64,000 bases of DNA from an uncultured archaeon (GCA_964486045.1 CAZALK010000009.1:64001-128000), one strand, 5' to 3'; shown: positions 43,541 to 61,546, counted from the first letter of the stretch. The notes: generated from the sequence alone by a model not told the origin. Numbers and translations are program-made.

Positions 43541-45190
43541 TTAGAACTTAATTCTTTTTAATACTGGATATCTCCTACCAATTCCGAAGGCGCTTTCACT
43601 AACCTTAATTGTTTGAACTAATTGTCTCCGTTTGTATTCGGAATTTAGATAAAGATTTCTAACTCTATTAATTGTATTCACATCAAAACCTTGGTCCTTT
43701 AAATTCTGAAATTCAGAACCAATTCCATTTTCAATAATTTCTTCCAATATCACATCTAACACATCATATGGTGGAAGGGAATCACTATCTTTCTGATTTT
43801 CACGTAATTCAGCAGTGGGAGGTCTTTCTATTATTCCTTTAGGGATTATCTCTTTATCTCGATTTATCCAATCACATATATCATAAATTTGAACTTTTAA
43901 AAGATCCCCAGGAACATTCTTACCACCACAAGTATCACCATATAAAGTACAGTAACCCACTCCAATCTCAGATTTATTCCCGGTAGACACCAAAAGCCAA
44001 TTGAATTTGTTAGAGTAATACATTAATATATCTGCTCTAATTCTTGCTTGAAGGTTCTCATCTGCTATATCAAAACGTTGTTTTCCCATGTTTTTTTCTA
44101 TATTTTCTTCATAGATAGCAAATAAATCGCTAATAGGATGAATAACATATTTAAGATTTAAATTATCGCATAATTTTCGGGCAAGATCTATACTTTCTTT
44201 TGATGTGAATCTTGTAGGCATCATTATAGCAGTAACTCTTTTTGAACCGAGAGCTTTTGCACAGATATAGGCAGTAATAGCAGAATCAACTCCACCACTT
44301 AGGCCTAATACCACACCGACGAAGACACCACTTTTGTGATAATAATCAAAAAGGTTTAATTTCAAAGCATTTACGACATCTTCTCTCCAATCTGCTTTAG
44401 GATGCGATTCTTCAGTCGTTTGAGCTTCATTGACTAGTAACTCGAAAAAACGAATATCCTCTTCAAATGCTTTCGCTTTAAAAACAATCTGACCATATCT
44501 ATTTGTAATAAAACTTTGACCATCATAAACTATTTCGTCAAGCCCACCAACCATATTAACATATGCTATAGGTAGTGATAGTTCTTTGGATTTTCCTCTA
44601 ATTAGATCACTTCTTAATTTAAATTTGTTAATATGATAAGGTGAGGCATTAATAACAATCAAAATCTCAGCTCCATTTGCTTTTAAGTTCCTTGATACTT
44701 TCACATTATAATGTTCATCCCATATATCCTCACAAATTAATATTCCTACTTTGTATCCTTTAATTTCTACTGGTTCATATTGATTGTCAAATGAAAAATA
44801 TCTTCTCTCATCAAATACATCATAGTTTGGAAGTAATCGTTTATTTACGCTTTTAATAATTTTATTATTTTCAATAACAATAGCAGAATTATAGAACCGA
44901 TGTATTTTTCCTTCTATTTTTTTTGGTTCTGTAAATGTGCCCAAAATAATTGTTGATTCTGTCTCAATTTCCTTAATTTTTTTAATAGCTTCAAGATTTT
45001 TCTTTCTGATTAGGGGATCATGAATATGATCCATAATTGGATAACCCACAAGCGCCATTTCAGGAAATATGATGATCTCACTTTCTTGACTGTTTCTAAT
45101 TATCCCTATTATTTTATTAGCATTATACTCAATATCTCCTACAATTGGATTAATTTGAGCAATTTTGAGCTTTAAGCTTCCATTTAGCAT
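43541..45190 (-). CDS. nadE: Glutamine-dependent NAD+ synthetase
   Basis: Nitrilase domain (FPE, KRLLPNYDVFDE, ICED) plus synthetase domain (GLSGGVDS, ENLQARIR, TGNKSE, PTAEL). Confidence 0.97.
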   Translation of the reverse strand: MLNGSLKLKIAQINPIVGDIEYNANKIIGIIRNSQESEIIIFPEMALVGYPIMDHIHDPLIRKKNLEAIKKIKEIETESTIILGTFTEPKKIEGKIHRFYNSAIVIENNKIIKSVNKRLLPNYDVFDERRYFSFDNQYEPVEIKGYKVGILICEDIWDEHYNVKVSRNLKANGAEILIVINASPYHINKFKLRSDLIRGKSKELSLPIAYVNMVGGLDEIVYDGQSFITNRYGQIVFKAKAFEEDIRFFELLVNEAQTTEESHPKADWREDVVNALKLNLFDYYHKSGVFVGVVLGLSGGVDSAITAYICAKALGSKRVTAIMMPTRFTSKESIDLARKLCDNLNLKYVIHPISDLFAIYEENIEKNMGKQRFDIADENLQARIRADILMYYSNKFNWLLVSTGNKSEIGVGYCTLYGDTCGGKNVPGDLLKVQIYDICDWINRDKEIIPKGIIERPPTAELRENQKDSDSLPPYDVLDVILEEIIENGIGSEFQNLKDQGFDVNTINRVRNLYLNSEYKRRQLVQTIKVSESAFGIGRRYPVLKRIKF

Positions 45191-45276
45191 TTTGAGTTCT
45201 ATATTAAATTAAATTTGATATTAATATTCTTTTCCTCTAAGAATTATAAAAAAAACCAAAAAAAATCTTAATTGTA

Positions 45277-46626
45277 TTATAATCTTATGTAGCGATTTCT
45301 TTCCCAGTCGCTTACAACAAGTCGATATGCATCAAATTCTTCTAATTTAGCATAATAATAATTCTTAAACGCAACTTCGCCAAATGTATCTTTCATTAAT
45401 TCAGATTTTTTGAATTCCGTGATTGCTTCACTTAGGCTTCCAGGTAAAGAAATAATCCCTTCTTTTTCCATTTCTTTTGATGATAAATGGTAAACATTTC
45501 TGTCTGTTGCCTCAGGAATTTCAATATCATCCGAGAGAAGTCCTTCTAACCCCGTTCTAATTAATACAGCAAATTGTAGATATGGATTGCCCGAAGGATC
45601 TGGACATCTTATCTCATTTCTAGCTGAATCAGGTTTTCCATGAAAGTCTGGTACTCTAATTAGGGGAGATCGATTTCTAAATCCCCAAGCTAGATAGACT
45701 GGAGCTTCATATCCCGGAACTAAACGCTTGTAAGAGTTAGGCCAACTACTTAATACAGCACACATAGCCCTAGCATGTTTTAATTGACCGGCCATCCATT
45801 TTTTCATTAATATAGAAATATTGTCTGCATCATTTTCATCATAGAAGATATTATTACCGCCTCTCCAAAGGGATTGGTGTACATGCATCCCAGATCCATT
45901 GATTCCATGAAAAGGCTTTGGCATAAATGTAGCAGTCATCTTATTTTGAGCTGCAACAGTTTTTACAATTGTTTTTATAGTAATTGTATTGTCTGCTGTA
46001 TCAACAGCTTTATCATATCGAAAGTCTATTTCATGCTGTCCATACGCTACCTCGTGGTGGACGCATTCGACATCAATTCCCATGGCATCGCAATATTCAG
46101 CAATAGTATATCTCATCAATTCGTTTATATCATATGGATCATAGTCGAAATATCCTCTCATATCTGAAGGTTTAAATTCTTGCGTAGTATCAGGAGTTAG
46201 TATAAAAAATTCCATTTCTGGAGCACATTGAAAAGTATAACCATGTTCTTCTGCTTTTCTTACAGCTCGTTGCAAAATATATCTTGGATCTCCTTCATAA
46301 CGTTTTCCATCTGGTGTATAAATGTCACAAATCACTCTTGCAACTTTTCTTTCTTTTCTCCATGGTAAAAGAAAAAATGTACTCGGGTCAGGTATAGCAA
46401 CTTTATCGGATTCCTCTATGGCTCCATAACCTGTAATGGAACTTCCGTCAAAGCTTTCGCCAATATCAAATATGTCTTCAATCCGTTTTGAGTTTATTTC
46501 AAAACTTTTGATTATCCCATGGATATCTGTAAATTGGAGATAGATAAATTTAATATCTTGTTCTTTTATCTTTTCAATTACAGCATCACATACCTGCTTC
46601 CTTTTTGGATCATCTTTTTCAATCAT
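45277..46626 (-). CDS. glnA: Glutamine synthetase type I (alpha)
   Basis: LQFTDIHG, FDGSSI, HHEVAYGQHEIDF, FMPKP...GSGMHVHQS, NSYKRLVPGYEAP, NRSPLIRVP. Confidence 0.98.
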   Translation of the reverse strand: MIEKDDPKRKQVCDAVIEKIKEQDIKFIYLQFTDIHGIIKSFEINSKRIEDIFDIGESFDGSSITGYGAIEESDKVAIPDPSTFFLLPWRKERKVARVICDIYTPDGKRYEGDPRYILQRAVRKAEEHGYTFQCAPEMEFFILTPDTTQEFKPSDMRGYFDYDPYDINELMRYTIAEYCDAMGIDVECVHHEVAYGQHEIDFRYDKAVDTADNTITIKTIVKTVAAQNKMTATFMPKPFHGINGSGMHVHQSLWRGGNNIFYDENDADNISILMKKWMAGQLKHARAMCAVLSSWPNSYKRLVPGYEAPVYLAWGFRNRSPLIRVPDFHGKPDSARNEIRCPDPSGNPYLQFAVLIRTGLEGLLSDDIEIPEATDRNVYHLSSKEMEKEGIISLPGSLSEAITEFKKSELMKDTFGEVAFKNYYYAKLEEFDAYRLVVSDWERNRYIRL

Positions 46627-46659
46627 AATTTTTAATCATTCTGTTTGTTTTTATCTATT

Positions 46660-47034
46660 TTATTCATAAAATAAAGAAGAATTGCTCTTATTTTTTATAT
46701 TAGGAGTGAAAAATTTTTTTGATGGAAAGACTATTGGGATGCTCTCCTTTTTTGGTTTAAATCTTCTAACAGCTTCACTATTCCAATCATAGAGATTTCT
46801 TTCATTTATTGCTAAGCTTTCTGGTTCAGGAGTTAAATCTTTAATTGATTCACTAGTTCTGCTTTTTCTAAATGCAGTAGTATCAATTCCTAAGAAGACT
46901 GAACAATTCCATTTGTGATTGGTTTTATCTCCAATATCTGCCACACCACTATAAACCGAATAATCCTCACAATCTTGACAGATTTTTCTGTCATAGTGGT
47001 ATTTTTTTCCGCATACGGGACATTTTATTTCCAT
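46660..47034 (-). CDS. Uncharacterised zinc-ribbon protein (KWxC/LxYE family, copy A) directly upstream of glnA
   Basis: CPVCG...KICQDC...HKWNC...LFYE*; 33-nt gap to glnA; paralog at 55832..56332. Confidence 0.85.
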   Translation of the reverse strand: MEIKCPVCGKKYHYDRKICQDCEDYSVYSGVADIGDKTNHKWNCSVFLGIDTTAFRKSRTSESIKDLTPEPESLAINERNLYDWNSEAVRRFKPKKESIPIVFPSKKFFTPNIKNKSNSSLFYE

Positions 47035-47381
47035 AATTTCTTTTTCACAGTTATTAAGTTTTTGTTATAGTATTTTTATTAAAAGGAAAATTACTTGATT
47101 TCCCTAAGCAAATCATTTTTCACTTTTTAATAGGTTAATACTCATTTTATTTTCTTAAATACTATATGTGATCGTATATTTAAAAATATTAGTATTAACT
47201 TATTCAATTGTTAACATTTATGGGAATAAAGATTTATAAATGATCATTAATCTATAATAAGAGTGATCGATTGATTCAATTCATAATTTTTGTCGTGAAA
47301 AATAATGATCATTCAGTTATTTTTCAGTCAAAGTTATGGACGAATGCATACTTTAATAATAAAGATTAGGCTATTAATAAT
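47035..47381. promoter_or_regulatory. Divergent promoter region between the Zn-ribbon/glnA/nadE unit and the Lrp regulator
   Basis: TATA-like boxes near 47180 and 47235; AATGATCATT palindrome at 47239-47248 and 47304-47313; GTGATCG at 47168 and 47263. Confidence 0.55.
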
Positions 47382-47879
47382 ATGACCTCAAATATGGATC
47401 TTTCTGATTTAGATATCAACATCCTCACTAAGCTGAGTGAAGATGGTCGATTCTCACTTCGTCAACTCGCAAAAGATTTGAATGTAGGTTCACCAGTAAC
47501 GATCAAGAATCATGTTGAGAGTTTGGAAAAAAAAGGGATTATTAAGAATTATGGTGCCCAAATTGATTATGAAAAATTGGGTTATACCATTATTGCACTT
47601 ATTGAAATTACGGTTTCAAAAGGTAAAATGATTGTTGTCGAAGAAAAGTTGGCCCAAAATCCAAATGTTTTTGCAGTGTATGACATCACAGGGACGTATG
47701 ATGCTCTTATTCTTGCTAGGTTTAAAACAAGAGCAGAACTTAGCGATATGATAAAGAAAGAGATTCATGCTTCCCCTAATGTTGAGCATACAAATACACA
47801 TATAATATTAAATATTATTAAAGAAGGGTGTTCTTTTACTGAATTGCTAGAAAAGGAAAAGGAAAAGGAAAACGAGTAA
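47382..47879 (+). CDS. Lrp/AsnC family transcriptional regulator
   Basis: LSDLDINILTKLSEDGRFSLRQLAK HTH, LEKKGII, IDYEKLGY, VYDITGTYD. Confidence 0.95.
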   Translation: MTSNMDLSDLDINILTKLSEDGRFSLRQLAKDLNVGSPVTIKNHVESLEKKGIIKNYGAQIDYEKLGYTIIALIEITVSKGKMIVVEEKLAQNPNVFAVYDITGTYDALILARFKTRAELSDMIKKEIHASPNVEHTNTHIILNIIKEGCSFTELLEKEKEKENE

Positions 47880-47986
47880 ATACCCGTTTCACCTTTCATT
47901 GAAAACCTAGGAATTATAAAATAACCTTTTTTAAGTAATATGTCTATTCTTTATTCATAGAATATTTATGATCAAAACAAGAAAAA

Positions 47987-48322
47987 ATGGCGCTAAAAAT
48001 GAAACTAATAACACGAGAAGAACTAAAAAATAAAATAGACGCAAAAGAAGACTTCAAACTAGTTTTTACTCTTGGAGAATGGCCTTATAAAGCAATACAT
48101 ATACCTAGTTCGCTCAATATTAGCTCTCCTGAAAAAATTATAGAGCAACTCGAAAAAAATGATGAGATTATTGTTTATTGCTCATCTGAAGAATGTTATG
48201 CTAGCATTATGGCATATCATGCTCTGATGAACAATGGTTTCACCAATGTTAGGCGTTTTGCAGGTGGTTTGGAAGAATGGCAAAAAGCAGGTTATGAATT
48301 AGACGGAGAAATGGTGGCTTAA
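47987..48322 (+). CDS. Single-domain rhodanese-like protein
   Basis: HIPSSLNI, IIVYCSSEEC, GFTNVRRFAGGLEEW. Confidence 0.9.
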   Translation: MALKMKLITREELKNKIDAKEDFKLVFTLGEWPYKAIHIPSSLNISSPEKIIEQLEKNDEIIVYCSSEECYASIMAYHALMNNGFTNVRRFAGGLEEWQKAGYELDGEMVA

Positions 48323-48526
48323 GAGTATATAACCTCATATTTCTTCCAGTGGTAGGATCAATGACTTTTTGAATTATTTCTTCTTCTTTGAGCATCTTGT
48401 ATTTTTCTCCTCTCAAATTATGTCTTAACTATAAAAATATTTAATAATCGAATCAATTTTCAATAGAAAAATTTTTGTTAAATCCAACTAAATATATCAA
48501 AATAAAAAAAATCTTGTGCTAAAAAT

Positions 48527-49855
48527 ATGGGAAAAGTTCTAGAACTTGCTGAAGATTTGTGGACAGGGAAGAAAGATACTTTTACTTATCATCCTTTCGG
48601 TATGCCACGAGGACTTGAGTTGATTGATGGTCGTGATACTAATCGGACTTGGTTTTACCGTGGCTTTTCAAATACGATTATTAGGGAAACAGATGAAGGA
48701 TTAATTATTGTAGATCCTGGTGCATTATTTGATATTAGAGAAAGATTCAGAGCCGTCAGAAAGGTATCCCAACAAAGATTAAATACTGCTATCTTCACGC
48801 ATGGTCATGTTGATCATGTTGGAATAAGGGATTATTTAAAAGAATCTAAGAAGAAAAATTGGCCACCACCTCAAGTAATTGGCCATAAATCAATGATCGA
48901 TCGTTTTAATCGATATAAATTAACTGAATCCTGGAATGGATACATAAATCTTAGACAATTCAGAGGAAATCAAGGTGAACCATTTTTTCCAACTGGTTTT
49001 TATTATCCTGATAAAACTTATGACGGAGAGTTAGCTTTAAAAATAGGAGGAGTCAATATCCAACTGAAGCATGCTAGGGGTGAAACAAACGATCATACTT
49101 GGGTTTTCTTTCCCGATAGTGGTGTATTATGTACTGGAGATTTATTTATTTGGGCGATACCAAACACCGGAAATCCACAAAAAGTCCAACGTTATGCTAA
49201 TGAATGGGCCATTGCCCTGCGAGAGATGAAAAGTAAAAATCCAAAGATATTGTGTCCGGGACATGGGGTTCCAATTATTGGGAAAGAAAGAGTAACAGAT
49301 GCATTGAACGACACTGCGTCGCTTCTGGAGTCACTTCATGAGCAGACGATTGATTTAATGAATAAAGGTGTTTCCCTTGATACTGTTATCCATAATGTTA
49401 AGGCTCCAGATGATCTACTCAAAAAACCTTATTTAAAACCGGTATATGACGAACCAGAATTCATCGTGAGGAATATTTGGAGATTGTATGGTGGCTGGTA
49501 TGATGGAACACCTTCACATCTTAAACCAGCTCCCGAACTTGCCCAAGCAAATGAAATAGCAAATCTATCTGGTGGAGCTAATAAGCTGGCGGAGAGAGCA
49601 AAAGAACTTCTAGAACAAGGAGAATTAAAATTGGCATGTCACCTTGCAGAATGGGCTTTTTTAAGTTCTCCTGATGATAGTTTTGTTCGCAAAATCGCTT
49701 CAGATGTTTTTACTACTCGTGCTAAAGCAGAAACATCCACGATGGCAATCGGGATATATTTATCTGCCGCTAGAGATATGAGAGGGGAGACTGAAAACGA
49801 ATCACTTGGTAATACCATCAAGTTTTCCCAAGATGAAAGAAGGGAAAAAAAATAA
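48527..49855 (+). CDS. Alkyl-sulfatase (SdsA/BDS1)-like MBL-fold hydrolase
   Basis: FTHGHVDH, GETNDH, TGD, CPGHG, IWRLYGGWYDG. Confidence 0.9.
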   Translation: MGKVLELAEDLWTGKKDTFTYHPFGMPRGLELIDGRDTNRTWFYRGFSNTIIRETDEGLIIVDPGALFDIRERFRAVRKVSQQRLNTAIFTHGHVDHVGIRDYLKESKKKNWPPPQVIGHKSMIDRFNRYKLTESWNGYINLRQFRGNQGEPFFPTGFYYPDKTYDGELALKIGGVNIQLKHARGETNDHTWVFFPDSGVLCTGDLFIWAIPNTGNPQKVQRYANEWAIALREMKSKNPKILCPGHGVPIIGKERVTDALNDTASLLESLHEQTIDLMNKGVSLDTVIHNVKAPDDLLKKPYLKPVYDEPEFIVRNIWRLYGGWYDGTPSHLKPAPELAQANEIANLSGGANKLAERAKELLEQGELKLACHLAEWAFLSSPDDSFVRKIASDVFTTRAKAETSTMAIGIYLSAARDMRGETENESLGNTIKFSQDERREKK

Positions 49856-50152
49856 AAAAATAAGTAAAAACTCGTTATTGTATAGCAATAATGAATTGTA
49901 ATGATAATTCCAATTAAGAGAATTGAAATAATTCCAACTTGTATTAGGAATCTTACTTTACCGAAATTTTCTGGGATTAGATATATTAACCGATAAATCG
50001 CAAAAGTTTTTATCCATACACAAGGTTAAGGAAGTCAAAACGGAGATAGTGTTAGACCTAATAAACCAAGATCACTCAACTTTTATTCCTGAATAATAAA
50101 AACCTTCTTTAAAAAGTAATAATCTGATAAAACACTTAAAAAATTGGAGCTA

Positions 50153-50377
50153 TCAAAGGAGTTCTCTTATATTTTTCTTTAAATCCTCGTTTTCTTTACC
50201 AAAAACGCGTAAATATGTCTCTTTCTCTTGATCTACATCAAATTTTGAAGTTATTCCACGATTTTTTAATTCCTCAAATAAATCCCATAAAGAAGCGCCA
50301 GAAATATTCGCTGCGCGTTCTAAGGTATCACCTTTTTGGTATAAATCAATAGCAACCTCTACTTTTTGTGAAAGCAT
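50153..50377 (-). CDS. UPF0175-like antitoxin/HTH protein, possibly N-terminally truncated
   Basis: AIDLYQKGDTLERAANISGASLWDLFEELKNRGI. Confidence 0.65.
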   Translation of the reverse strand: MLSQKVEVAIDLYQKGDTLERAANISGASLWDLFEELKNRGITSKFDVDQEKETYLRVFGKENEDLKKNIRELL

Positions 50378-51074
50378 ACAAAATCATTTTTGATTTTTGA
50401 AACCTTAAAATTCAGAAATTCATTCCTTTAATTATTTAATATTCATCTAGTTCAGTTTAAAATGTTTTCCTTTTTCTAGAAATAAAATTAAAATCACTAA
50501 AGCGTGAAAGGGTATTCATAAATTTTGACTTGGCTGGTCGTTGATGATGTGACTCCTTGGAATTTGGATAATTGCAAGAGATTTTTCCTTTAAATAAACT
50601 AAAAACCAAACTATTAAATGGTTTAGAAGTAAAAATACTATTGTAGATAAGATAAAAAACCTATCCATGACTCCTACCAAGCACCCTGGATTTTTGTCTT
50701 TTGGCAGTGTAAGCACTTACACTCTAATTTAATCTTTACCTATATTGTCTTTAACCTTGGTTTTAGGTCTCGCTGGTAGGAGTCGCTCTTAGATATTGTT
50801 ATCCTCAAGATTCTAATTCAAGAGAAAAAGTTTACTATACAAATTGATGAAACTGAGGAACTAATGATAATTACAATTGTTACCATGAAATTCTGATCCT
50901 TTGAATAATTTCCCACAGAACCAGAAATATAATCCCGGGTAATTAAAATAAGTCTCGTTTTCTATACATTGTTTATGTTTTTAATTATATTTTTATGTAA
51001 AATTTACCTAATTTAATTTATTACCAGCGATATAAGGTATTAGATTAATCATTTATAAGTTAGAGCAAAATAAA

Positions 51075-52940
51075 ATGTCAGAGTCAATATCCGGACAAAT
51101 TGAATAAGGTTATATTCTACTCAATGAAGGAAAAATCGACCAAGCTTTCCAAATAGTACTCGAAACAGAAAACCAAGAGAGCTTAACACCTGGTGAAATG
51201 TTACAAAATCAATTACTTAAAGGAACACTTTTACTTTTTCTGGGGAAGTTGGAAGAAGCTATTAAAATAGGAGAGAAAGCCTTCCAGGAGAGTGAGGCTC
51301 TAAACAACCCATGCCAATCAATTGAAGCTATTCTCCTGAAATTTGGAGCCTTATATAACCTTGGTAGATTCGATGAAGCATTGGGAGATATTAATTATAG
51401 TAAAAAATTACTCAAAAGTAATTATAGGTGGACTTCATCTGAATTAGAAAAATGTAAAGCTATGGTTGCTTTCATGAAGGGCTCTATTCATCATCAAAGG
51501 CACGAACTAGATCTTGCATTAAAAAATCTCATGAAAAGTTTAGCTTTATTAGAAAATTCTAAGTTATATTCCTTTATGATTCCGCAGCTGTTAGTTTTCA
51601 TTGGTGACACTTATCATTGGAAAGGGGAAGTGGAAGAAGCTCGCCAATCTCACGAAAGAGCCTTGACACTTTTAAAAGGTACTAGTCCACTCATTAAAAT
51701 AATGATCGCAACTTCTCATTATGGTCTTGGTGTAATGCATCATCAACAGGGTAAACCAGATTTAGCATTAGAAAAATATAAAAAAAGTCTAAATATTTTC
51801 GAAAAGCATTGGATACCTTTTTACGTTGGTGCAGTTTACGATCGCATTATTATAGTTTACCTTGATCAGAACGATTGTGAACAAGCAAGAAATTACTTAA
51901 CTCGATTTCAGCAGTTCAATGAACAAATTAGTAATTTGAATAATAAAATCGTCTATGACACTAATTTCTATGAATTATCACGAGCAAGAATATTAAAGTC
52001 AAGTACTCGAACCCGAGATCGGGCAAAAGCTGAAAAAATTTTAAAAGGTCTAATTAAAAGAGAAATGAATATAAACTCTCCAATAAAATTCTTCTTGCGG
52101 GGGCAAGTTCAATTAGCCTTAGTAGTACTCTGTGAATTATATTTTACAGAGTTACATCTCACAAACGATTTGAGAATTCTTGATGATATTGAACCTCTAA
52201 TTGAAAAATTGACTAAAGAAGCAGAACGATCAAGTTCTAGTTTTCTATTAGCTAATGTTTACTTATTACAAGGTAAAATTGCTTTGCTTCGAATGAATAT
52301 GGGGGAGGCTCGGCGCTATTTAACACAAGCTCAGCATATTGCAGAACCTAAAGGTCTTCAGTTGCTAGCCAAAGCTATATCACGAAATCATGATAAGCTT
52401 TTGGACCAGTTGGATGAATGGGAGAACCTTAAAAAGAAAAAAGCTTCAATATCAGAACGCATGGATTTAGCCCTAGTTGATGAAACAATTGATCAGATAC
52501 AAGGAAGGCGCAATATTGAAGATTTAGAGATCAAGGATGAAGACTCGGTTCTACTAATGATATTAACTGAGGGAGGTTCGTTATTGTTTTCTTATCCTTT
52601 CGCTAAAGAATGGAAAATGGATGAAGATCTCCTTGGAAGTTTCCTGTCTGCATTCACTTCATTTAGTGAGGAATTTTTTTCGCAGGAACTGGACAGAGCT
52701 AAGTTTGGCAAATTCACCGTTCTCATAAAATCTCTCTTCAATTTTACCGTTTGCTACTTATTTAAGGGTCAGTCTTATCTGGCAATAAAAAAACTCGCAA
52801 AGTTCGTTAAGATCATCAGCGAGAATGATTCCGTCATCGAGACCTTCCGGAAATTTCAAAACACTAACCAGTTATTGGAAATCAGCGATTACCCGTTTCT
52901 CAAATCGTTCATCACTGAACTTTTTGTAAAAAATGAGTGA
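51075..52940 (+). pseudogene. TPR protein with C-terminal longin/roadblock-like domain; in-frame TAA at 51105-51107
   Basis: ATG 51075 is in frame with 51198 (MSESISGQIE*GYILLNEGKIDQAF); TPR-like helices; tail LLMILTEGGSLLFSY...LLGSFLSAFTSFSEEFF. Confidence 0.8.
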
Positions 52941-53291
52941 AAAATCAACTTGAATCAATTTGCTCATAGAAAGTAAATCTATTTATGTAATACCAACACT
53001 ATGATAATTCAGATCCTAAATCTTAAATATAAAAGTTGCTGAATATGAGTTAAAAAAGACATAAAGAATCATGAACAGAGATAAAACGCAGGAAAAAGAA
53101 AGAGAACATGCTGAGAATGAGATAAATTTTTATGATATCATGTTAGAAGCTATCAAATTCGGACTGTTGAATTATATTGAATATTATTAAAGAAAAAATT
53201 CCCTGTCAAATTAATAAATACAGAATAGATAGAGAATCTTAAAAATAGCTTTTCTGATAATTTATGTGCCTAAAATTTTAATTCCTTATTT

Positions 53292-53648
53292 TTGACGTTT
53301 TTTATTTATAATAATTTACCAAATCCTACTCATTTGTACCATTTTAAAATTAATTTTGTTCGAATATATGCAGATCATAACTTCATTCCAGAAGGTAAAA
53401 ATGGTCTAGAATTAACTATCAGACCCAGATTTCAAGAAAAGAAGGAACCTTTGAAAGTTATGGTGGATGGGAGATGTCCTTATTGTAATGGTAATAAATA
53501 TAGGAAAATAAATAAAGGTTTAATAGAAATCACAAACCAAGAAACATCAGAAAAATCCTATATCTTCGAGTATTATGAAAATTTGCTATATTGTCAAAAT
53601 CCCGAATGTCGTGAAAAATTTTTGTTAAAAAAGACTTCTGAAAGTTAA
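53292..53648 (+). CDS. Small zinc-ribbon protein (start uncertain, possibly ATG 53460)
   Basis: CPYC ... CQNPEC. Confidence 0.5.
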   Translation: MTFFIYNNLPNPTHLYHFKINFVRIYADHNFIPEGKNGLELTIRPRFQEKKEPLKVMVDGRCPYCNGNKYRKINKGLIEITNQETSEKSYIFEYYENLLYCQNPECREKFLLKKTSES

Positions 53649-53657
53649 AAATGTAGA

Positions 53658-54296
53658 TTGTTGACAGAAGCTCAAAATAATGCCGAGGATCATGGCTTAA
53701 GATTATTATCTCAAAAGATCTCAATAGAACATGATAACTTACTGGGAAAATCAGAAGTTTGGCAAACTCTTAAGAACAATAAGGCCCCAATTTCAGATCG
53801 TATTAAATTGGCTTCCATTGATGGCGTTATTGGCCGATTACAAGGGAGTCGTGCGGTAGATCCTCCTGATATAATTGATGAGCAACCTACACTAATTTTA
53901 ATCATAGCTGAGGGGGGATCACTTTTGTTTTCTCATAAGTTTGTAGAAGAATTTTCATATGAAGAAGATGTAATCAGTGGTTTTTTAACCGCTTTTAGCA
54001 CCTTTAGTGGAGAAATTTTTTCCAAGGGACTCGATAGAGCCAAATTTGGCGAAGATACTATACTAATGGAATCAGTTGGCCAATTTTCTGTTTGCTATCT
54101 ATTTAAAGGGCAAACATATCCAGCAATGCAAAAACTAAGTCAGTTTAAAGGAAAAATTGAAAACTCAACCCCTATATTGCAAACGCTTGAGAAGTTTTAT
54201 AACACAAGCCAAGTTCTTGAATTAAAGGATGATCCTTTACTTAAGTCGTTAATAGATGAGATATTTATTAGGAAAAGCGTTAAATTAAATGTTTAA
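53658..54296 (+). pseudogene. 3' fragment of a second TPR/longin-like paralog
   Basis: Begins mid-helix (LTEAQNNAEDHGLRLL vs LTQAQHIAEPKGLQLL) and aligns with the last ~210 aa of the upstream protein. Confidence 0.8.
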
Positions 54297-54529
54297 ATAA
54301 CTCAAAGAATTCTCTTTTTCTCAATCTTCATTTTATTTAATTTCAAAACTCTTAGGAATTGTCCCTATGCCTATTGAAAAGATTTTCAATTTAAGATTTT
54401 AAGATTTATGAAAAGAATTTATCCCATACTTCTTGTAGGCTGAACTCGATAAATAACCTTTTCACTATTTTTAATTTAATAGGGTAAATATATTTAATAA
54501 ATATGAACAATACCTATTGAGTGAAAAAC

Positions 54530-54835
54530 ATGAAAGTTTTAAGTAAAGAAGAGATATTCAAGCTTCTTAAGCAACATAAAGAAGAATTAAAAAAGTATTT
54601 TGTAAGAAAGATTGGAATTTTTGGCTCCGTTTTGAGAGGAGATAATACTAATGAGAGTGATATCGATTTTATAGTTGAGTTTGAGGTTGGAAAAAAAAAT
54701 TATGATAATTTTATCGAATTGGCCTTTTTATTAGAACGTCTTTTGCAGAGAAAAGTAGAATTACTCACGACTGAAGCTCTCAGTCCTTATATGAAGCCTA
54801 AGATTCTAAAGGAGGCTTATTTTGAATCAATCTAA
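54530..54835 (+). CDS. mntA: Minimal nucleotidyltransferase (MNT) antitoxin
   Basis: IGIFGSVLRGDNTNESDIDFIVEF (GSx10DxD), LERLLQRKVEL. Confidence 0.9.
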   Translation: MKVLSKEEIFKLLKQHKEELKKYFVRKIGIFGSVLRGDNTNESDIDFIVEFEVGKKNYDNFIELAFLLERLLQRKVELLTTEALSPYMKPKILKEAYFESI

Positions 54836-55016
54836 AGATTATATGGACAAAATCAATCACATAATTGATGAGATTACTTATTTATTAACCAATTTAAAAG
54901 GATTAACGCATGATAAGTTCATTAAAGATGAAACGCTAAAGAGAGCATTTGTTAGAAGTTTGGAGATTATTGGAGAAGCCGTAAAAACCATTCCTAAACA
55001 TGTACGTGAACAGTAA
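54822..55016 (+). pseudogene. hepT: Truncated HEPN (DUF86/HepT) toxin
   Basis: DETLKRAFVRSLEIIGEAVK; ends at 64 aa, before the catalytic Rx4-6H motif. Confidence 0.85.
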
Positions 55017-55029
55017 ATAATATATTTAA

Positions 55030-55320
55030 CTATAAATAATACTTTTTAACTTCAGTTATTACTAGATCAATTAAGTCTTTAGTATTAACCGATAAATTCA
55101 TAGAGATTTTTCATAACTCTATGGCGTATTAATTATCGTCATTTTGATAATTTGTGAGTATAGCACCCAAACTGAAAGATAGTAGAAAATCAGGTTTCAG
55201 CTTTAAACATCTTTTAGAAATATCGAGTGTTGAAGATAAAAACATTGGATAATTTTGTCTATATTTGCCTACTTGATTATAAAAATGTTAGAAGTATAAA
55301 ATTTGTTCAATTAAAACCAT
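55030..55320 (-). pseudogene. Possible degraded small gene with three in-frame stops
   Basis: ATG 55320 to TAG 55030 in one frame with protein-like composition (MVLIEQILYF*HFYNQ...NDDN*YAIEL*KISMNL...KKYYL*); no family recognised. Confidence 0.35.
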
Positions 55321-55494
55321 TAATATTAAATACTAGATCTGTAGAAAAAAAAAAGTTTTCACAAATGTGAGATTTATTTAGTTATTTGTTTATTTTTTTT
55401 TGTTTTTTGTCGCTTATGTTTAGCAGATCGCTGATTTTATTAAACAAATATCAATAACTTTATTAGGTACAATGTGTATTTATAATATAAAAAG

Positions 55495-55516
55495 ATATGG
55501 GATCCATTTCCCATAT
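55495..55516. promoter_or_regulatory. Candidate operator: perfect 8-6-8 inverted repeat
   Basis: ATATGGGA-tccatt-TCCCATAT, just downstream of TATA-like TTTATAATAT (~55479). Confidence 0.6.
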
Positions 55517-55591
55517 TATAAAAAAATGAGATAATTAAGCGTAAGAGGAAAAGTAAGGCTATAAAAAATTTTTAAATAGGAGGTTTTAAAA

Positions 55592-55807
55592 ATAACAGTT
55601 CAAGAGTATTTTCGAACATGGGAAGAAATTTGCTTAGAAAAACTAAAAGAAATAGGAAGATCATCAGCCTCAGAATGGGCAAGGGCAATGGGATATGGAG
55701 AAAATCGTAATGGAGTAACAACCGTCATTAAAAGAATTAGAAAAACGATGCCAGAGAAATTGGTAATTTATTATAAACAAAGGCCTAGATTATACGAGGC
55801 TCAATAA
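55592..55807 (+). CDS. Small winged-helix-like DNA-binding protein, ATA start, absent from the ORF track
   Basis: 71 aa: TWEEICLEKLKEIGRSSASEWARAMGYGENRNGVTTVIKRIRK...RPRLYEAQ; SD AGGAGGT 7 nt upstream; in-frame TAG at 55577. Confidence 0.75.
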   Translation: MTVQEYFRTWEEICLEKLKEIGRSSASEWARAMGYGENRNGVTTVIKRIRKTMPEKLVIYYKQRPRLYEAQ

Positions 55808-55831
55808 ATAAGAAAAAGGATGTGAACAAAA

Positions 55832-56332
55832 ATATCATTAAAATGTCATCTTTGCGGAAAAGAGATTTATCATGACAGCAAGATATGTCAAATATGTGAA
55901 GAAACAGCTACCAAAAGTGCATTATCCCACAGTGGAAGAGAAGTCAAGAAGTGGAGATGTGATAACTTTTTAGAATTAAAAAGTTTACCATTTGGATGTA
56001 ATCTAGGTTCAGGAATCGAAATTGGCCCGAAAATGATTAATTGCCCTGAGTGCGGAGAGGAATACTCATATGGAAGAAAAATTAGCCATATTTGCCAGGA
56101 CAATTCAATTGAGTTTGGTAAAATATTCGAATTTGAACACCAAGGCCATAAGTGGAATTGTGATACGGCAATGGCATGCATGGAATTATTAACATCCAAT
56201 CTAGATTCAGTTGAATCATTTGTAGAAAAAATCCCGCGTATTGAAAAACTCGAGACAAACGATCATAAATGGAATGATTTAAAATTGAACATTGAGATAG
56301 ATGTGAAGAAGAACCATCTAATTTATGAATAA
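55832..56332 (+). CDS. Uncharacterised tandem zinc-ribbon protein (KWxC/LxYE family, copy B), ATA start
   Basis: The frame of ORF 56033..56332 is open back to ATA 55832: MSLKCHLCGKEIYHDSKICQICEE...KKWRCD, then MINCPECGEEYSYGRKISHICQD...HKWNCD...LIYE*; SD-like GGATGTGA 6 nt upstream. Confidence 0.82.
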   Translation: MSLKCHLCGKEIYHDSKICQICEETATKSALSHSGREVKKWRCDNFLELKSLPFGCNLGSGIEIGPKMINCPECGEEYSYGRKISHICQDNSIEFGKIFEFEHQGHKWNCDTAMACMELLTSNLDSVESFVEKIPRIEKLETNDHKWNDLKLNIEIDVKKNHLIYE

Positions 56333-56523
56333 TAATTTACAAATTTTTTAATTATTAATTCAATAATAAAAGGATTTAAGTAAAAAAGAGAGAAGTATTA
56401 CATAGATAACTCAAAGTAAATGTGAGTATATTGTAGTAGAGAAGAAAATTTAGTCAAGCAATTAAGATTAAGTTATTTCCTTAGCTTTTTTACGTAAGAT
56501 TTTCAAAAATTTTATAGAATTGA

Positions 56524-57891
56524 TTGATAAAATTAAAGAGGTTTAAAAAAATTCAGCAAGAGATTGTATTATTCCCGGGATGTGTAATTACTTATCGGCT
56601 CCCTTTTATTGAAGTTTCAATAAGAAAGGCTTTCGATTATTTAGGGATCGCATTCACAGAAAATTCAAAGTTTTCCTGTTGTCCTGAACCTAATGGAATC
56701 AAAAACTCGAATAAGTTATTATTTTCCATAGCTGCTGCACGGAATCTTGCTCTTGCTGAGAAGGAGAATAAATCTATTTTAACACCCTGTAATGGGTGTT
56801 TTACAACTTTCAAAAAAATAAAAGGTGAAATTGAGGAGGATCACCACTTCAGGAGGAAAGTTAATGATTATTTAGATAAAATTGATCTTAAAGTTCAGGG
56901 AGATTTAGAAGTTTATCATATGGTCGAATTCTTTTCTAAATTCAGAAGAGAAGCAATTAAGGATAATTTAAATTATACCTTGACTGGTTTAAGAGTTGCT
57001 GTGTTTTATGGTTGTCACTTCCTCAGACCAAGTAATATGGTGCAGATAGATGACCCGCTAGAGCCAACCATATTTGATAATTTAATTGAGGATTTAGGTG
57101 CTCAAAGTATTGATTATGATCTCAAGATGGAGTGTTGTGGGGGAAGCCTTGGGAGAGCAGGGAATCCAGCCCTATCATTAGAGATAATAAATGCGAAATT
57201 AGCCAGCATGAAGGAGAATAAAGTTGATTGCATAGTCGTGTGCTGTCCTCAATGTTTTATTCAGTTTGATCATTTACAACATGACTTAAAAAAAGATGAT
57301 CATAATTACGATATTCCCGTTTTATATTATTCAGAAATTGTTTGTATCGCATTAGGGATTGACATTCGAGAAATTATGAAAAAAAACCACAGAACACAAG
57401 TTGAATCCCTTTTTAACAAATTAGAAATCATCCAAGAGAAAAATAGTGAGATAAGAAAACATTTCGATCTTAATTTCTTACTCAAGTGTTATTCATGTAA
57501 AGCATGTGATGATGACTGTATTATTTCAACTAAGACTGAATTCAAACCGAGTGAAATTGTTGGTAGACTTCTTGAGGGAAAAGTTGAGGATGTAATATCA
57601 GATCCTTCAATTTGGTTGTGCCTTGATTGCTATTTATGTTATGAGCTGTGTCCTATGAGGGTTGGGGTGATTGAAATTTTTTCAATATTACGAAACCTTG
57701 CGACAGAACGAGGTCATACTACCAAGGGATATAAGGGTGAATTTGAATCCTTTTATCAAAAAGGAACTGTGGGTATGTTTTCAAAGTCAGCCCGTAAAAG
57801 AGTGGGCTTAGAATCTACAAAACCAAACGTTGGAGATTTGAAAGAATTATTTAATATTATTGAAAGAGAAAATGTAAAACCAGATTCTTAA
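56524..57891 (+). CDS. Heterodisulfide-reductase-like HdrB-HdrC fusion
   Basis: Two CCG domains (LFPGC, SCCP, PCNGC, YGCH, ECCG, CPQC), then CYSCKACDDDC and CLDCYLCYELCP; likely start ATT 56551. Confidence 0.92.
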   Translation: MIKLKRFKKIQQEIVLFPGCVITYRLPFIEVSIRKAFDYLGIAFTENSKFSCCPEPNGIKNSNKLLFSIAAARNLALAEKENKSILTPCNGCFTTFKKIKGEIEEDHHFRRKVNDYLDKIDLKVQGDLEVYHMVEFFSKFRREAIKDNLNYTLTGLRVAVFYGCHFLRPSNMVQIDDPLEPTIFDNLIEDLGAQSIDYDLKMECCGGSLGRAGNPALSLEIINAKLASMKENKVDCIVVCCPQCFIQFDHLQHDLKKDDHNYDIPVLYYSEIVCIALGIDIREIMKKNHRTQVESLFNKLEIIQEKNSEIRKHFDLNFLLKCYSCKACDDDCIISTKTEFKPSEIVGRLLEGKVEDVISDPSIWLCLDCYLCYELCPMRVGVIEIFSILRNLATERGHTTKGYKGEFESFYQKGTVGMFSKSARKRVGLESTKPNVGDLKELFNIIERENVKPDS

Positions 57892-57909
57892 AAAATAAAA
57901 AGGAGAAAA

Positions 57910-59103
57910 GTGATGAGATGGGAAAATTATACATCCTTACCGGAACAATTTAGGAATCAGAGGGTGTTTGATGGATGTGGAATCTCCGGTTTCATTAATA
58001 TTGATGGCAGCAGAGTTTCAGGGGATAAAGTAATTGATATGTTATGTATTTTAAAAGACAGAGAAAATGGCCTTGGTGCTGGTTTTGCAGGATATGGAAT
58101 TTATCCTGAGTTTAAAGATTATTATGCTTTTCATTTTCTTTTTGACAACGATAATGCTAAATTAAAATCATTAAAATATCTTGAAAAAAATGGCAGAATA
58201 ATAAAATCTGAGGTAATACCTACAAATCTACCATCTGGTATTGATAATCCTCCTATTATCTGGAGAGTATTTTTTGATCCTGAGAATTGCAAAAACCAAG
58301 ATTGCGATGAGAAAATCGTTCAATTAGTTATGGAAATCAATTCAAATATAGAAAATGCCTTTGTAATGTCATCTGGAAAAGATCTGGGTGTGTTTAAAGG
58401 GAATGGCTGGTCATATGAAATAGCTGATTTTTATAAAATTTCAGATTATGACGGATATATGTGGTTAGGACATTCAAGGTTCCCAACAAATACACCTGGA
58501 TGGTGGGGTGGTGCACATCCATTTAATCTGTTAAATTGTTCGGTGGTTCATAATGGGGAGATAACGTCTTATGGAACGAATAAAAGGTATTTAGATTCAT
58601 TTGGATATAAATGTACTCTTTTTACCGATACAGAAGTTATCGCATACTTATTTGATCTCTTATGTCGTAAACATAATATTCCGGTATATCTCGCTGCTAT
58701 TGCTTTAGCACCTCCATTATATAAAGATATTGAAAAATTAGATAAAAAATCTCAAATAATATTTAAAAACATAAGAGCGACTTATAAGAGCGCCATGTTG
58801 AACGGTCCGTTTTCTATTGTTGTTGGCTATTCAAATCCCGTCCCTACAATGATAGGATTGTCGGATAGAAAAAAGTTACGACCCTTAGTGGCGGGAATTT
58901 CTGAAGATAGAAACACAGTTTACATGAGTAGCGAGGAAGCCTCTTTCAAAAGATTGATGCTTAAAGATAGTGATTTTAATTTACAAGATATTTGGCACCC
59001 AAAAAGTGGGACTGCTGTTATAGCCAAAGTTGGGAAAGGATTAATAAGTGATGGACTCGAAATTCCGTTAAAAAAAGAAAAATTTTCTACAGTAGAGGTG
59101 TGA
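57910..59103 (+). CDS. gltB1: Glutamate synthase domain 1 (class II glutamine amidotransferase, GltB1)
   Basis: DGCGISG, RENGLGAG, GHSRFPTNT, HPF, VHNGEI, TDTE, DRKKLRP. Confidence 0.92.
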   Translation: MMRWENYTSLPEQFRNQRVFDGCGISGFINIDGSRVSGDKVIDMLCILKDRENGLGAGFAGYGIYPEFKDYYAFHFLFDNDNAKLKSLKYLEKNGRIIKSEVIPTNLPSGIDNPPIIWRVFFDPENCKNQDCDEKIVQLVMEINSNIENAFVMSSGKDLGVFKGNGWSYEIADFYKISDYDGYMWLGHSRFPTNTPGWWGGAHPFNLLNCSVVHNGEITSYGTNKRYLDSFGYKCTLFTDTEVIAYLFDLLCRKHNIPVYLAAIALAPPLYKDIEKLDKKSQIIFKNIRATYKSAMLNGPFSIVVGYSNPVPTMIGLSDRKKLRPLVAGISEDRNTVYMSSEEASFKRLMLKDSDFNLQDIWHPKSGTAVIAKVGKGLISDGLEIPLKKEKFSTVEV

Positions 59104-59115
59104 AAACTGGCATTA

Positions 59116-60627
59116 GTGCATGAAATTCTTCCATATTATCGAGTAAATGTTGATCGAGAATATTGCAAGAAATGCAAAAGATGTATAACTCACTGTTCAT
59201 TCGGAGCGTTGTCTTTTAATGGAGAAAGAATTGTTGCGACTGATAATAAGTGTGTAGCATGCCAAAGATGTGTGGTAATGTGCCCAGGTAAGGCAATACG
59301 CATTGTTAAAAATGATGCCTATTTACCTCAACATGGTAATTACACAAGAAAGATTCGAAATATGATATGGGCTCAATCTGGAAGCGGAGGTGTTTTACTT
59401 TCTGCAACTGGAAACGATAGACCAATTAGATCTATTTTTGACGATTTACTTCTTGATGCCTGCCAAGTAACAAATCCCAGTATCGATCCCTTAAGAGAAA
59501 CAATTGAGACTAAAATAGTTTTTGGGCGAAAACCAAAACAACTTGAATTCATTGGTGAATCAGATGATATAAATGAGATATCATTAAAGACCAAACTTTT
59601 TCCAAATTTTGATATAGATATGCCAATTATGGTTGGTCATATGTCTTTAGGGTCAATTAGCTACAATGCATGTCAAGCAATATATCAAGCAGCAAGTGAA
59701 TTAAATATTGTTGCAGGTTCAGGAGAAGGTGGTCTACATCAAGATTTTTATGAATATGCCCCAAATATCATTACAGAAGTTGCATCGGGAAGGTTTGGGG
59801 TAGATATTAATTATTTACACAACGCTGCGGGCTTAGAAATTAAGATAGGCCAAGGAGCTAAACCTGGTCACGGTGGTCATTTACCTGGTGAGAAAGTGAG
59901 TAGTTTAATTTCGCAAACACGAATGATTCCTCAAGGAAGTGATGCGTTATCTCCCTATCCTCATCATGATATTTATTCAATAGAGGATTTAGCCCAATTA
60001 ATAGCAGCATTAAAAGAAGCAACAAGATATAATGTTCCTGTGGGAGTAAAAATTGCTGCAGTTCATAACTCCGCTCCCATAGCTGTAGGAATTGTTAGAG
60101 GTGGTGCTGATTTTCTAACAATTGATGGTTTTAGAGGTGGAACAGGAGCTGCTCCAAGAATTATTCGAGATCATGCAGGAATTCCTATAGAATTAGCAAT
60201 TGCTGCCGTGGATGAAAGATTAAGACAAGAAGGATTACGAGAAGAGATAACATTAATTGCTGGAGGTTCAATTCGATATTCTGCCGACCTAATCAAAGCT
60301 ATTGCGTTAGGAGCTGATGTAGCAATGTGTTGTATGCCAGTATTAATAGCAATGGGATGTCGAGTTTGTCAACAATGTTTTAAAGGTACTTGCTCATGGG
60401 GAATCGCAACTCAACAAGAATATTTAGTGAAGAGATTAGATATTGATGTTGCGAAAAAAAGAATTATAAATTTATTTCATTCTTGGAATGAAGAATTAAA
60501 AGAAGTATTAGGAGCGATGGGTATTGATTCTGTAGAGTCGCTCCGTTCAAATAGGGATCGGTTAAGATATATCGGTCCTAATCCGCGTATTGCGGATATA
60601 TTGGGAGTAAAACATGCTGGGGAATAA
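59116..60627 (+). CDS. gltB2: Glutamate synthase FMN-binding domain 2 with N-terminal 2x[4Fe-4S] ferredoxin (GltB2)
   Basis: CKKCKRCITHC, CVACQRCVVMCP, MSLGSIS, SGEGG, EIKIGQGAKPGHGGHLPGEKV, HHDIYSIEDL, CRVCQQCFKGTC; start may be CTG 59107. Confidence 0.96.
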   Translation: MHEILPYYRVNVDREYCKKCKRCITHCSFGALSFNGERIVATDNKCVACQRCVVMCPGKAIRIVKNDAYLPQHGNYTRKIRNMIWAQSGSGGVLLSATGNDRPIRSIFDDLLLDACQVTNPSIDPLRETIETKIVFGRKPKQLEFIGESDDINEISLKTKLFPNFDIDMPIMVGHMSLGSISYNACQAIYQAASELNIVAGSGEGGLHQDFYEYAPNIITEVASGRFGVDINYLHNAAGLEIKIGQGAKPGHGGHLPGEKVSSLISQTRMIPQGSDALSPYPHHDIYSIEDLAQLIAALKEATRYNVPVGVKIAAVHNSAPIAVGIVRGGADFLTIDGFRGGTGAAPRIIRDHAGIPIELAIAAVDERLRQEGLREEITLIAGGSIRYSADLIKAIALGADVAMCCMPVLIAMGCRVCQQCFKGTCSWGIATQQEYLVKRLDIDVAKKRIINLFHSWNEELKEVLGAMGIDSVESLRSNRDRLRYIGPNPRIADILGVKHAGE

Positions 60628-61465: not shown

Positions 61466-61546
61466 TCCTAATTTTTCTAAAAATCAAAAAGGAGACTTAT
61501 TCTGGAAATTAATAGCTCTTCTTCCGATTTTTTTTGATTTTGAAAA

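Follow-up and report, generated by a model that had tools for sequence, protein, structure and literature searches.

Small CPxCG zinc-finger regulators and Lrp-controlled glnA genes are both known in archaea. The gene of the small CPxCG zinc-finger protein Brz lies directly 5' of bop, in the same orientation; Brz controls bop transcription, in a regulation shared with Bat and with Brb, a small basic protein (PMC2253796, PMC3184054). Lrp regulators that respond to glutamine, or whose genes are linked to glnA, are also described in archaea (PMC8229911, PMC3584215). On nitrogen regulation in Asgard archaea, our literature search found no published study. Here we analyzed a stretch of 64,000 nt (the window) from an uncultured archaeon (GCA_964486045.1 CAZALK010000009.1:64001-128000). 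It corresponds to positions 64001-128000 of contig C9 in a 5.18-Mb genome of 45 contigs, and its relatives are uncultured Promethearchaeota/Promethearchaeia (Loki-type Asgard) metagenome-assembled genomes (MAGs) derived from sediments. We describe in it a new family of small proteins, ZR, which is real, conserved and lineage-specific, and is tied to nitrogen-assimilation genes and to helix-turn-helix (HTH) regulators. Its two genes in the window, ZR1 and ZR2, stand at the head of the following units:

45277-46626, minus strand: glnA, glutamine synthetase (GS), 449 aa (Pfam Gln-synt_N and Gln-synt_C, E 1e-120)
46660-47034, minus strand: ZR1, open reading frame (ORF) for a small zinc-finger protein of 124 aa with an N-terminal CPxCG knuckle, KWNC, YDWN and an LFYE end
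47035-47381: control region between the divergent Lrp and ZR1 genes, with conserved blocks including the GATC-containing CGATCAC and TGATCATT
47382-47879, plus strand: Lrp/AsnC-family regulator, divergent from ZR1-glnA (Pfam AsnC_trans_reg, HTH_24)
55495-55516: candidate operator palindrome ATATGGGA-N6-TCCCATAT, in full ATATGGGATCCATTTCCCATAT, core GGGA-N6-TCCC at 55499-55512, 5' of the HTH-like gene
55592-55807, plus strand: basic HTH-like protein of 70 aa, always preceding ZR2-type genes (alignment A7)
55832-56332, plus strand: ZR2, a single open frame with two tandem zinc-finger domains, HKWN and an LIYE end
56524-57891, plus strand: HdrB-HdrC-like fusion, two CCG domains and then a 4Fe-4S dicluster (Pfam CCG, Fer4_8)
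57910-59103, plus strand: GltB1 of a split archaeal GOGAT (Pfam GATase_2)
59116-60627, plus strand: GltB2 of the split GOGAT (Pfam Glu_synthase and Fer4)
60614-61465, plus strand: GltB3 of the split GOGAT (Pfam GXGXG)

When all six-frame ORFs of the genome were searched with a hidden Markov model (HMM) of the domain, the full ZR domain was found in the ZR1 and ZR2 genes only. These two genes, with three domain copies, head the only GS of the genome (glnA gave a single tblastn match) and its only GOGAT (57910-61465, single copy). An earlier prediction made from the nucleotides alone (the sequence-only reading) had proposed this arrangement, with hdrBC-gltB1-B2-B3 following ZR2, and ORFs and Pfam calls bear it out. 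It had also judged the pairing unlikely by chance. Since the domain is limited to two genes and both glnA and GOGAT are single-copy, the pairing is indeed far beyond chance, and the same arrangement recurs in other genomes. The ZR1 stop lies 33 nt ahead of the glnA start at 46626, and in 17 other loci this gap is 26-97 nt.

The motif of the domain is CxxCG-x7-KI(C/S)xxC-x18-KWxC, with seven residues in the first spacer instead of the six originally read. In 26 domain copies, C5, C8, G9, C22, W42 and C44 are invariant. The third Cys (C19) is variable; repeat-2-type domains replace it and have an invariant His as the next residue, which stands in for the third Cys in the second repeat of ZR2. 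The ZR1 and ZR2 families are homologous over their first 57 residues (hhalign 99.2%, E 2e-19). Among 16 ZR1 orthologs, 50-71% identical, the invariant positions are C5, C8, C19, C22, KWNC, Y82, W84, L121 and E124. The ZR2 homologs (n=22, 52-78% identity) all have M at the same start position; relatives begin with MSLKC, with ATG or GTG where the window has ATA, and ATA is also read at this place in an independent contig (second assembly, run X2). The codons ATG TGA stand in frame just before this ATA and are part of a Shine-Dalgarno-like AGGATGTGA (window 55815-55834). The two repeats thus lie in one frame as predicted, but the predicted length of 166 aa needs the ATA start at 55832, while the first canonical ATG (56033) would give 99 aa with the second repeat only. 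Such a single-repeat product is possible. In three loci (L047, L065, L094), single-repeat ZR forms head HdrBC-GOGAT units.

An exhaustive HMM search of 1.84 billion representative proteins returned 115 matches, about 80 of them true small members and one cluster consisting of a 197-aa Lrp fusion; the larger matches cover only parts of the profile, in multi-stretch proteins. In a survey of 301 genomes of the phylum, the family is present in 43, all from a single taxonomic family and three genera. In that family, 42 of the 68 sampled genomes have ZR genes, as does the window's own genome, and no ZR gene of a cultured strain was found in the searches made. No Pfam or NCBIfam model reached its cutoff for ZR1 or ZR2: DZR scored 21.8 bits (cutoff 27.3) and DZR_2 18.1 bits (cutoff 27), with the knuckle alone matched. 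For ZR1, the search of PDB profiles found only the bL32 knuckle (E 0.02). Foldseek against the PDB gave generic zinc knuckles with a best E of 2.6 (the zinc-binding domain of ClpX, DNA-binding domains of nuclear receptors, YacG and LysW, the last at rank 34, PDB 3wwl, non-significant), and the ESM Atlas search gave no usable match. No MerR or other HTH family was detected in ZR1 or ZR2 with Pfam and NCBIfam.

The AlphaFold2 model of ZR1 had a pLDDT of 39 with 16 orthologs and of 66.6 with 59 family members. In the latter, residues 1-30 alone are confident and form a zinc knuckle plus a helix starting at C19/C22; beyond residue 30, confidence is low and ZR1 is probably disordered. Conservation suggests that C44 may be the fourth zinc ligand in place of C19, but the model puts C19 and C22 at the helix start, and the idea was not adopted. 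A predicted complex of two GS chains with ZR1 residues 31-124 scored 0.00, a value that speaks neither for nor against binding.

Across 59 sequences with 25-70% identity, three modules are kept: the N-terminal domain, Y-x-W-N(C) and a basic tail. The tail is a basic stretch ending in [LIVMF]-[LIVMF]-(Y/F)-E, mostly LIYE, LFYE or LVYE, with KFE, RFE, IFE and SYE also seen, and its Glu is invariant among the aligned tail-bearing members. The last 30 residues of the family have a median isoelectric point (pI) of 8.3, and the ZR2-type proteins are acidic (median pI 5.9). Short domain-only forms, with relatives of 57-90 aa, and Lrp fusions have no tail. The WN motif and LxYE end noticed in the two window proteins are therefore real and conserved. 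The tail is the same irrespective of the downstream gene, which speaks for one partner shared by all and not for a partner specific to each enzyme. It had been proposed that the tail docks on a shared partner; its constancy fits this well, and the data do not name the partner. Three outcomes had been set in advance as speaking against the proposal as a whole, namely homologs scattered away from nitrogen genes, a tail that is not conserved and a match to a known family; all were looked for, and none was found, with no family matched above threshold. A loose version of the tail pattern fits 8 of the 5472 ORFs of the genome. A predicted membrane protein of 159 aa (C3:66845-67321) has a ZR-tail-like end, RRDRNSIIYE, which may be chance.

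For a census of genomic contexts, 6-kb flanks were taken for all family matches, and the 81 non-redundant ZR genes were classified as follows:

19 genes: directly 5' of GS (non-redundant loci with a ZR1-type gene before glnA)
17 genes: 5' of a 549-aa protein with only a Pfam Glu_synthase domain
6 genes: 5' of HdrBC-like plus GOGAT genes
1 gene: 5' of GltB1
2 genes: 5' of glutamate dehydrogenase (GDH)
1 gene: 5' of carbamate kinase (TIGR00746)
about 15 genes: ZR domain fused to the N-terminus of a complete Lrp/AsnC regulator
3 genes: 5' of a PfkB-like gene, in units that also have an HdrD-like protein
2 genes: 5' of a metallo-beta-lactamase (MBL)-fold gene
2 genes: 5' of an M24 peptidase
remainder of the 81: context unclassified or contig end

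Homologs are therefore strongly enriched near nitrogen genes, as the sequence-only reading would have it: 46 of the 81 stand directly 5' of a gene for GS, GOGAT, the 549-aa protein, GDH or carbamate kinase, to which the Lrp fusions add about 15. The association of ZR with nitrogen assimilation is robust. At one further locus, a ZR gene heads a GS paralog with 33% identity to GS. Two loci (L138 3001-4987 and L065 3431-6396) have a ZR1-like gene at the head of, or next to, a divergent GS paralog of about 500 aa that is 33-34% identical to glnA, with Lrp genes flanking. The protein of about 549 aa (548-554 aa; L064 15795-17444, L095 1885-3543, L043 4282-5934 and 14 more loci) matches Pfam Glu_synthase (FMN) only in part and has no NCBIfam name. 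It is the commonest gene right after the pair of HTH-like and ZR genes, with a gap of 5-36 nt; searching the window's genome with the GltB2 protein turned up no copy of it.

Most ZR loci have an Lrp gene no more than a few kb away. The ZR-Lrp fusions come from about 15 genomes, and one fusion locus has the order FeoB | ZR-Lrp | response regulator, histidine kinase | REC-Lrp | GDH. In this cluster (L056 5989-10761), the ZR domain of ZR-Lrp sits where REC stands in the neighboring 282-aa REC-Lrp fusion. In about 12 genomes, a second Lrp-like gene lies about 2.4 kb from the ZR-Lrp fusion, with the same spacing.

The HTH-like gene is found 24-120 nt ahead of every ZR2-type gene (27 loci). Its alignment (A7) comprises 21 sequences with 70% mean identity and a median pI of 9.65. 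The gene co-occurs with ZR: 14 of the 15 genus g1 genomes and all 16 of genus g4 have it, against only 4 of the 39 sampled from the family's other genera, in which ZR was likewise rare or not found. The AraC-type HTH_18 of Pfam is matched by 12 of the 21 members, only weakly, and the label HTH-like is therefore weakly supported; a search against PDB profiles gave no match. The gene has no ATG, GTG or TTG start in the window (55577-55594) or in a second genome (G243, L044 6759-6780). In both, the start reads TAG GAG GTT nnn AAA ATA ACA, with a perfect GGAGG 9 nt before ATA, whereas elsewhere the gene has an ATG start and a longer N-terminus. Judging from these reading frames, a conserved non-AUG (ATA) start is likely.

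Each of the 21 HTH-like genes has a GGGA-N6-TCCC core 35-112 nt 5' of it, where the background rate is 0.016 per 220 nt. With N5 or N6, the core is also present 5' of 6 of the 19 ZR1 genes, both ZR-MBL units and one other ZR1-like gene, and it was not found 5' of the ZR-Lrp fusions. A genome-wide search for GGGA-N5/6-TCCC gave 53 sites where about 18 were expected. The best intergenic copies of the ATGGGA-N6-TCCCAT type lie 5' of a TFB (TFIIB) paralog, a class I/II aminotransferase and an InhA-like peptidase (C31:10785, C10:102064, C19:18048). A genome-wide palindrome regulon was considered and dropped, its gene set being too mixed.

The second conserved control region is the one between Lrp and ZR1. 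Aligned across eight genomes, this DNA shows a mean column identity of 65%, with 48 columns invariant, even though identity between the ZR1 proteins of those genomes is only 30-70%. Within it, the repeated GATC-containing blocks TGATCGTAT, GTGATCGATTGAT and AATGATCATT (twice), at 47140-47320, are invariant across the eight genomes and are candidate Lrp sites. An Rfam scan of 44000-62000 found nothing, and when the intergenic regions of the window were scanned for inverted repeats in general, only AT-rich matches came up. A scan for sigma-70 promoters and terminators stayed at background level, with a model that is not applicable to archaea.

The history of the glnA unit bears on what ZR1 can be. 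The divergent Lrp|glnA pair is widespread, and many families of the phylum without any ZR gene have it. It follows that the pair predates ZR1, which was inserted into an older Lrp-glnA unit. For the Lrp of the window, the top NCBIfam model is that of a haloarchaeal glnA-linked Lrp, with a score under its cutoff. On the GS tree, ZR1 is patchy among close GS sequences, and well-supported branches force at least four gains or losses, which occurred without notable GS divergence. For this reason we regard ZR1 as an accessory and not a subunit of GS. In several genomes of genus g1, the order is GS | Lrp, HTH-like, ZR, Glu-synthase-like, with no ZR1 before GS. A MAG labelled Hodarchaeota has both units back to back (GOGAT, HdrBC-like, ZR2, Lrp | ZR1, glnA).

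ZR is probably part of a lineage-specific nitrogen-control circuit. As for its role, we suggest that ZR proteins are accessory subunits (co-regulators or sensors) of HTH regulators in a transcriptional circuit of nitrogen assimilation, and we give this a probability of about 0.4. The weight of the new evidence ties the ZR domain to HTH transcription regulators, and a transcription-level role is favored because the domain occurs fused to Lrp, the HTH-like gene is obligatory, a candidate operator is shared, the control region is conserved and ZR1 is accessory. The sequence-only reading had proposed a lineage-specific regulator or adaptor; the lineage restriction stands, and the evidence leans toward transcription with HTH regulators over post-translational control of GS. 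In the arrangement we infer, the N-terminal zinc domain (CPxCG knuckle, helix and WNC) would contact an HTH regulator, either Lrp or the 70-aa HTH-like protein encoded just 5' of ZR2-type genes. The C-terminal part, probably disordered for the most part and bearing YxWN and the hydrophobic-(Y/F)-E-COOH end, would contact a partner common to all paralogs. In response to a signal, ZR and its regulator would modulate the promoters of the GS, GOGAT, Glu-synthase-like, GDH and carbamate-kinase units, many of which share the GGGA-N6-TCCC candidate operator.

Several points weigh against such a co-regulator role. DNA binding and HTH contact are read from sequence and context; 13 of the 19 ZR1-type genes, the window's included, have no palindrome, and ZR1-type genes have no adjoining HTH-like partner gene. 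The tight gap to the enzyme gene (5-97 nt), together with a different enzyme for each paralog, would fit an enzyme-directed role equally well. The role also leaves the invariant C-terminal Glu unexplained, and the fold, modeled with confidence for the first 30 residues only, yields no functional clue.

ZR proteins could instead be enzyme-directed regulators, each paralog binding the enzyme encoded downstream and altering its activity or oligomeric state, in the manner of IF7/IF17, of sP26 or of the tails of GlnR/TnrA; this is compatible with a GlnR-like hybrid whose regulator is itself controlled by the enzyme. The 46 ZR genes lie 5-350 nt 5' of a co-oriented gene for a glutamate, glutamine or ammonia enzyme, and the middle region is kept within the GS-linked subfamily and differs between subfamilies. 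The terminal Glu may also be meaningful here, most neighboring enzymes using or making glutamate or glutamine, and a close analogue has been published in the glnR-glnA operon, whose regulator inserts a conserved C-terminal tail into the active site of GS (PMC9249791). However, the same tail is found before unrelated genes, including MBL-fold and PfkB-like ones, and is hardly enzyme-specific; the domain-only forms and Lrp fusions have no tail at all, and ZR1 was lost or moved at least four times among close GS genes. We regard this role as a serious rival, though a less probable one. A constant tail and a variable middle could be reconciled if the tail were a docking peptide for one shared hub and the middle picked the downstream enzyme, making the ZR proteins enzyme-specific adaptors, which seems to us rather unlikely. 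The hub could possibly be the 20S proteasome, with the tail as an HbYX-like plug for ubiquitin-independent, nitrogen-dependent turnover of GS, GOGAT and GDH. It is also possible that the terminal peptide-linked Glu mimics N-acyl-glutamate and enters glutamate sites of enzymes or of Lrp. Taken by itself, HbYX-type docking on the pockets of the 20S alpha-ring, with ZR proteins as enzyme-specific degradation adaptors or short-lived regulators, is improbable. Most members do end in [LIVMF]-Y-E, in line with HbYX syntax, AAA ATPases of the same genome end in LYS, LYR, IYS and FYK, and the mechanism is well described in archaea (PMC12352868, PMC11475706). The low-confidence prediction for most of the protein may also reflect disorder as in a 20S substrate or adaptor. 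Yet the last residue is nearly free in HbYX and the ZR Glu is not, a sizeable minority has Phe for Tyr or Lys/Arg at the hydrophobic position (KFE, RFE), the known activators are ring oligomers, and no proteasome gene was found in any context examined.

With its zinc knuckle and invariant C-terminal Glu, ZR resembles LysW, a protein of about 54 aa whose tail (EDWGE) is acidic and whose gene stands with those for an ATP-grasp ligase and the LysZYJK enzymes. A LysW-like carrier with the terminal Glu as handle or substrate (N-acyl-glutamate), or a Cys-based Fe-binding carrier of electrons or thiols for the HdrBC-like GOGAT partner, would make some sense of the fifth invariant Cys (C44) beyond four possible metal ligands, of the nine units with CCG-domain proteins and of the copy preceding carbamate kinase, a member of the amino-acid-kinase family. 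It is nevertheless highly unlikely: the 81 contexts yielded no ATP-grasp (LysX/RimK-type) ligase or other LysW pathway gene, the tail is not acidic but basic and hydrophobic, GS needs no electron carrier, and glnA and GOGAT are single housekeeping copies. Most ZR copies are not beside Hdr-like genes, and with CCG-domain proteins in the units of just 9 of the 81, the Cys-based redox carrier offered by the sequence-only reading finds little support. We consider it very improbable as well that ZR is a generic zinc-finger family without a nitrogen-specific role, its position going back to a single ancestral gene cluster. Only a few related genera have the family, many loci are not independent, and some members precede genes without evident nitrogen link (MBL-fold, PfkB-like, M24 peptidase). 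On the other hand, paralogs that share just 25-40% identity stand before different enzymes of one pathway (GS, its paralog, GOGAT, Glu-synthase-like, GDH and carbamate kinase), which would need repeated recruitment and not one inherited cluster, and the ZR-Lrp fusion, too, adjoins GDH.

Some neighboring genes complete the picture of the locus. Directly 3' of glnA we found:

43541-45190, minus strand: glutamine-dependent NAD+ synthetase (Pfam CN_hydrolase and NAD_synthase)

An NAD+ synthetase gene likewise follows glnA at locus L010. In the GOGAT unit, the HdrB-HdrC-like fusion has NCBIfam matches to HdrB-like and HdrC-like models, both under cutoff. About 8 kb separate Lrp from the HTH-like gene in the window (47880-55480), and since this distance is below 1 kb in other genomes, the interval looks like an insertion. 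It encodes a rhodanese, an alkylsulfatase-like MBL protein, a UPF0175 antitoxin-like protein, a nucleotidyltransferase/HepT pair (HepT of 64 aa), a tetratricopeptide repeat (TPR) protein of 580 aa and a 212-aa ORF repeating the C-terminal domain of the TPR protein. A 118-aa ORF at 53292-53648 has another zinc ribbon (CPYCNG ... CQNPEC), unrelated to the ZR family and without Pfam match.

The locus offers a compact testable circuit made of Lrp, a new 70-aa HTH-like protein with its palindrome and a new zinc-finger family, with components that are small, soluble-looking and could be made recombinantly. Should ZR proteins prove to be co-regulators, the idea of Brz-type CPxCG regulators would reach into central metabolism and a new phylum; should the tail bind the enzymes or the proteasome, a new mode of GS and GOGAT control would be added.

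Set beside known systems, ZR is like LysW/ArgW in being a small zinc-knuckle protein with a C-terminal glutamate, which is functionally essential in LysW, and unlike LysW in having no acidic EDWGE tail and no ATP-grasp ligase or LysZYJK neighbors. An HbYX C-terminus is found in PbaB, a further archaeal proteasome activator. Like the HbYX C-termini of PAN and Cdc48 (PMC12352868, PMC11475706), the ends of most ZR proteins read hydrophobic-Tyr-X. They differ in that X is always Glu and Tyr is sometimes Phe, and in being small non-AAA proteins without genomic link to the proteasome. Rubredoxin was rejected as a relative: the second ZR knuckle comes after only 10 residues and not about 30, the distal WNC provides a single Cys, and there is no Pfam match. 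The small GS-control proteins sP26 of Methanosarcina mazei (bioRxiv 10.1101/2020.05.06.080432) and IF7/IF17 of cyanobacteria (PMC7760959) correspond to one of the readings of ZR, but by their description they have no zinc finger, YE tail or GOGAT role and are not encoded at the head of glnA. In the GlnR/TnrA system of Gram-positive bacteria (PMC9249791), the regulator gene likewise stands directly 5' of glnA and shares its unit, the regulator ends in a short conserved tail borne by a flexible segment, and GS is, as here, of the short type (about 450 aa) without the GSI-beta insertion. GlnR is, however, a MerR-type winged-helix protein with an ...SRF tail, and ZR1 a zinc finger with a ...YE tail; the ZR tail recurs in paralogs before other enzymes, and GS binding by ZR1 is putative.

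The CPxCG class is defined by a CPxCG-like pattern and a second Cys/His pair 7-40 residues apart, with a working cut-off of <100 aa (PMC2253796). ZR1 has CPVCG followed ten residues later by CQDC, and ZR2 has CHLCG with CQIC in repeat 1 and CPECG with a conserved H-x-C replacing CxxC in repeat 2, so the motif agrees with the class; the lengths of 124 aa and 166 aa (99 aa from ATG) exceed the cut-off, save for the shorter ZR2 form. Within this class, Brz/Brb/Bat of Halobacterium salinarum (PMC2253796, PMC3184054) is the closest published analogue. No sequence relation to Brz is detectable beyond the knuckle, and ZR proteins are longer (about 75-170 aa) and have WNC, YxWN, the (Y/F)E C-terminus, nitrogen-linked paralogs and Lrp fusions. 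Control of adjacent-gene transcription by ZR has indirect support in the operator candidate and the HTH-like and Lrp partner genes. Like Brz, ZR is a small archaeal CPxCG protein encoded directly 5' of its putative target in the same orientation, paired with the gene of a small basic protein and with a larger transcription factor that may act in the same regulation.

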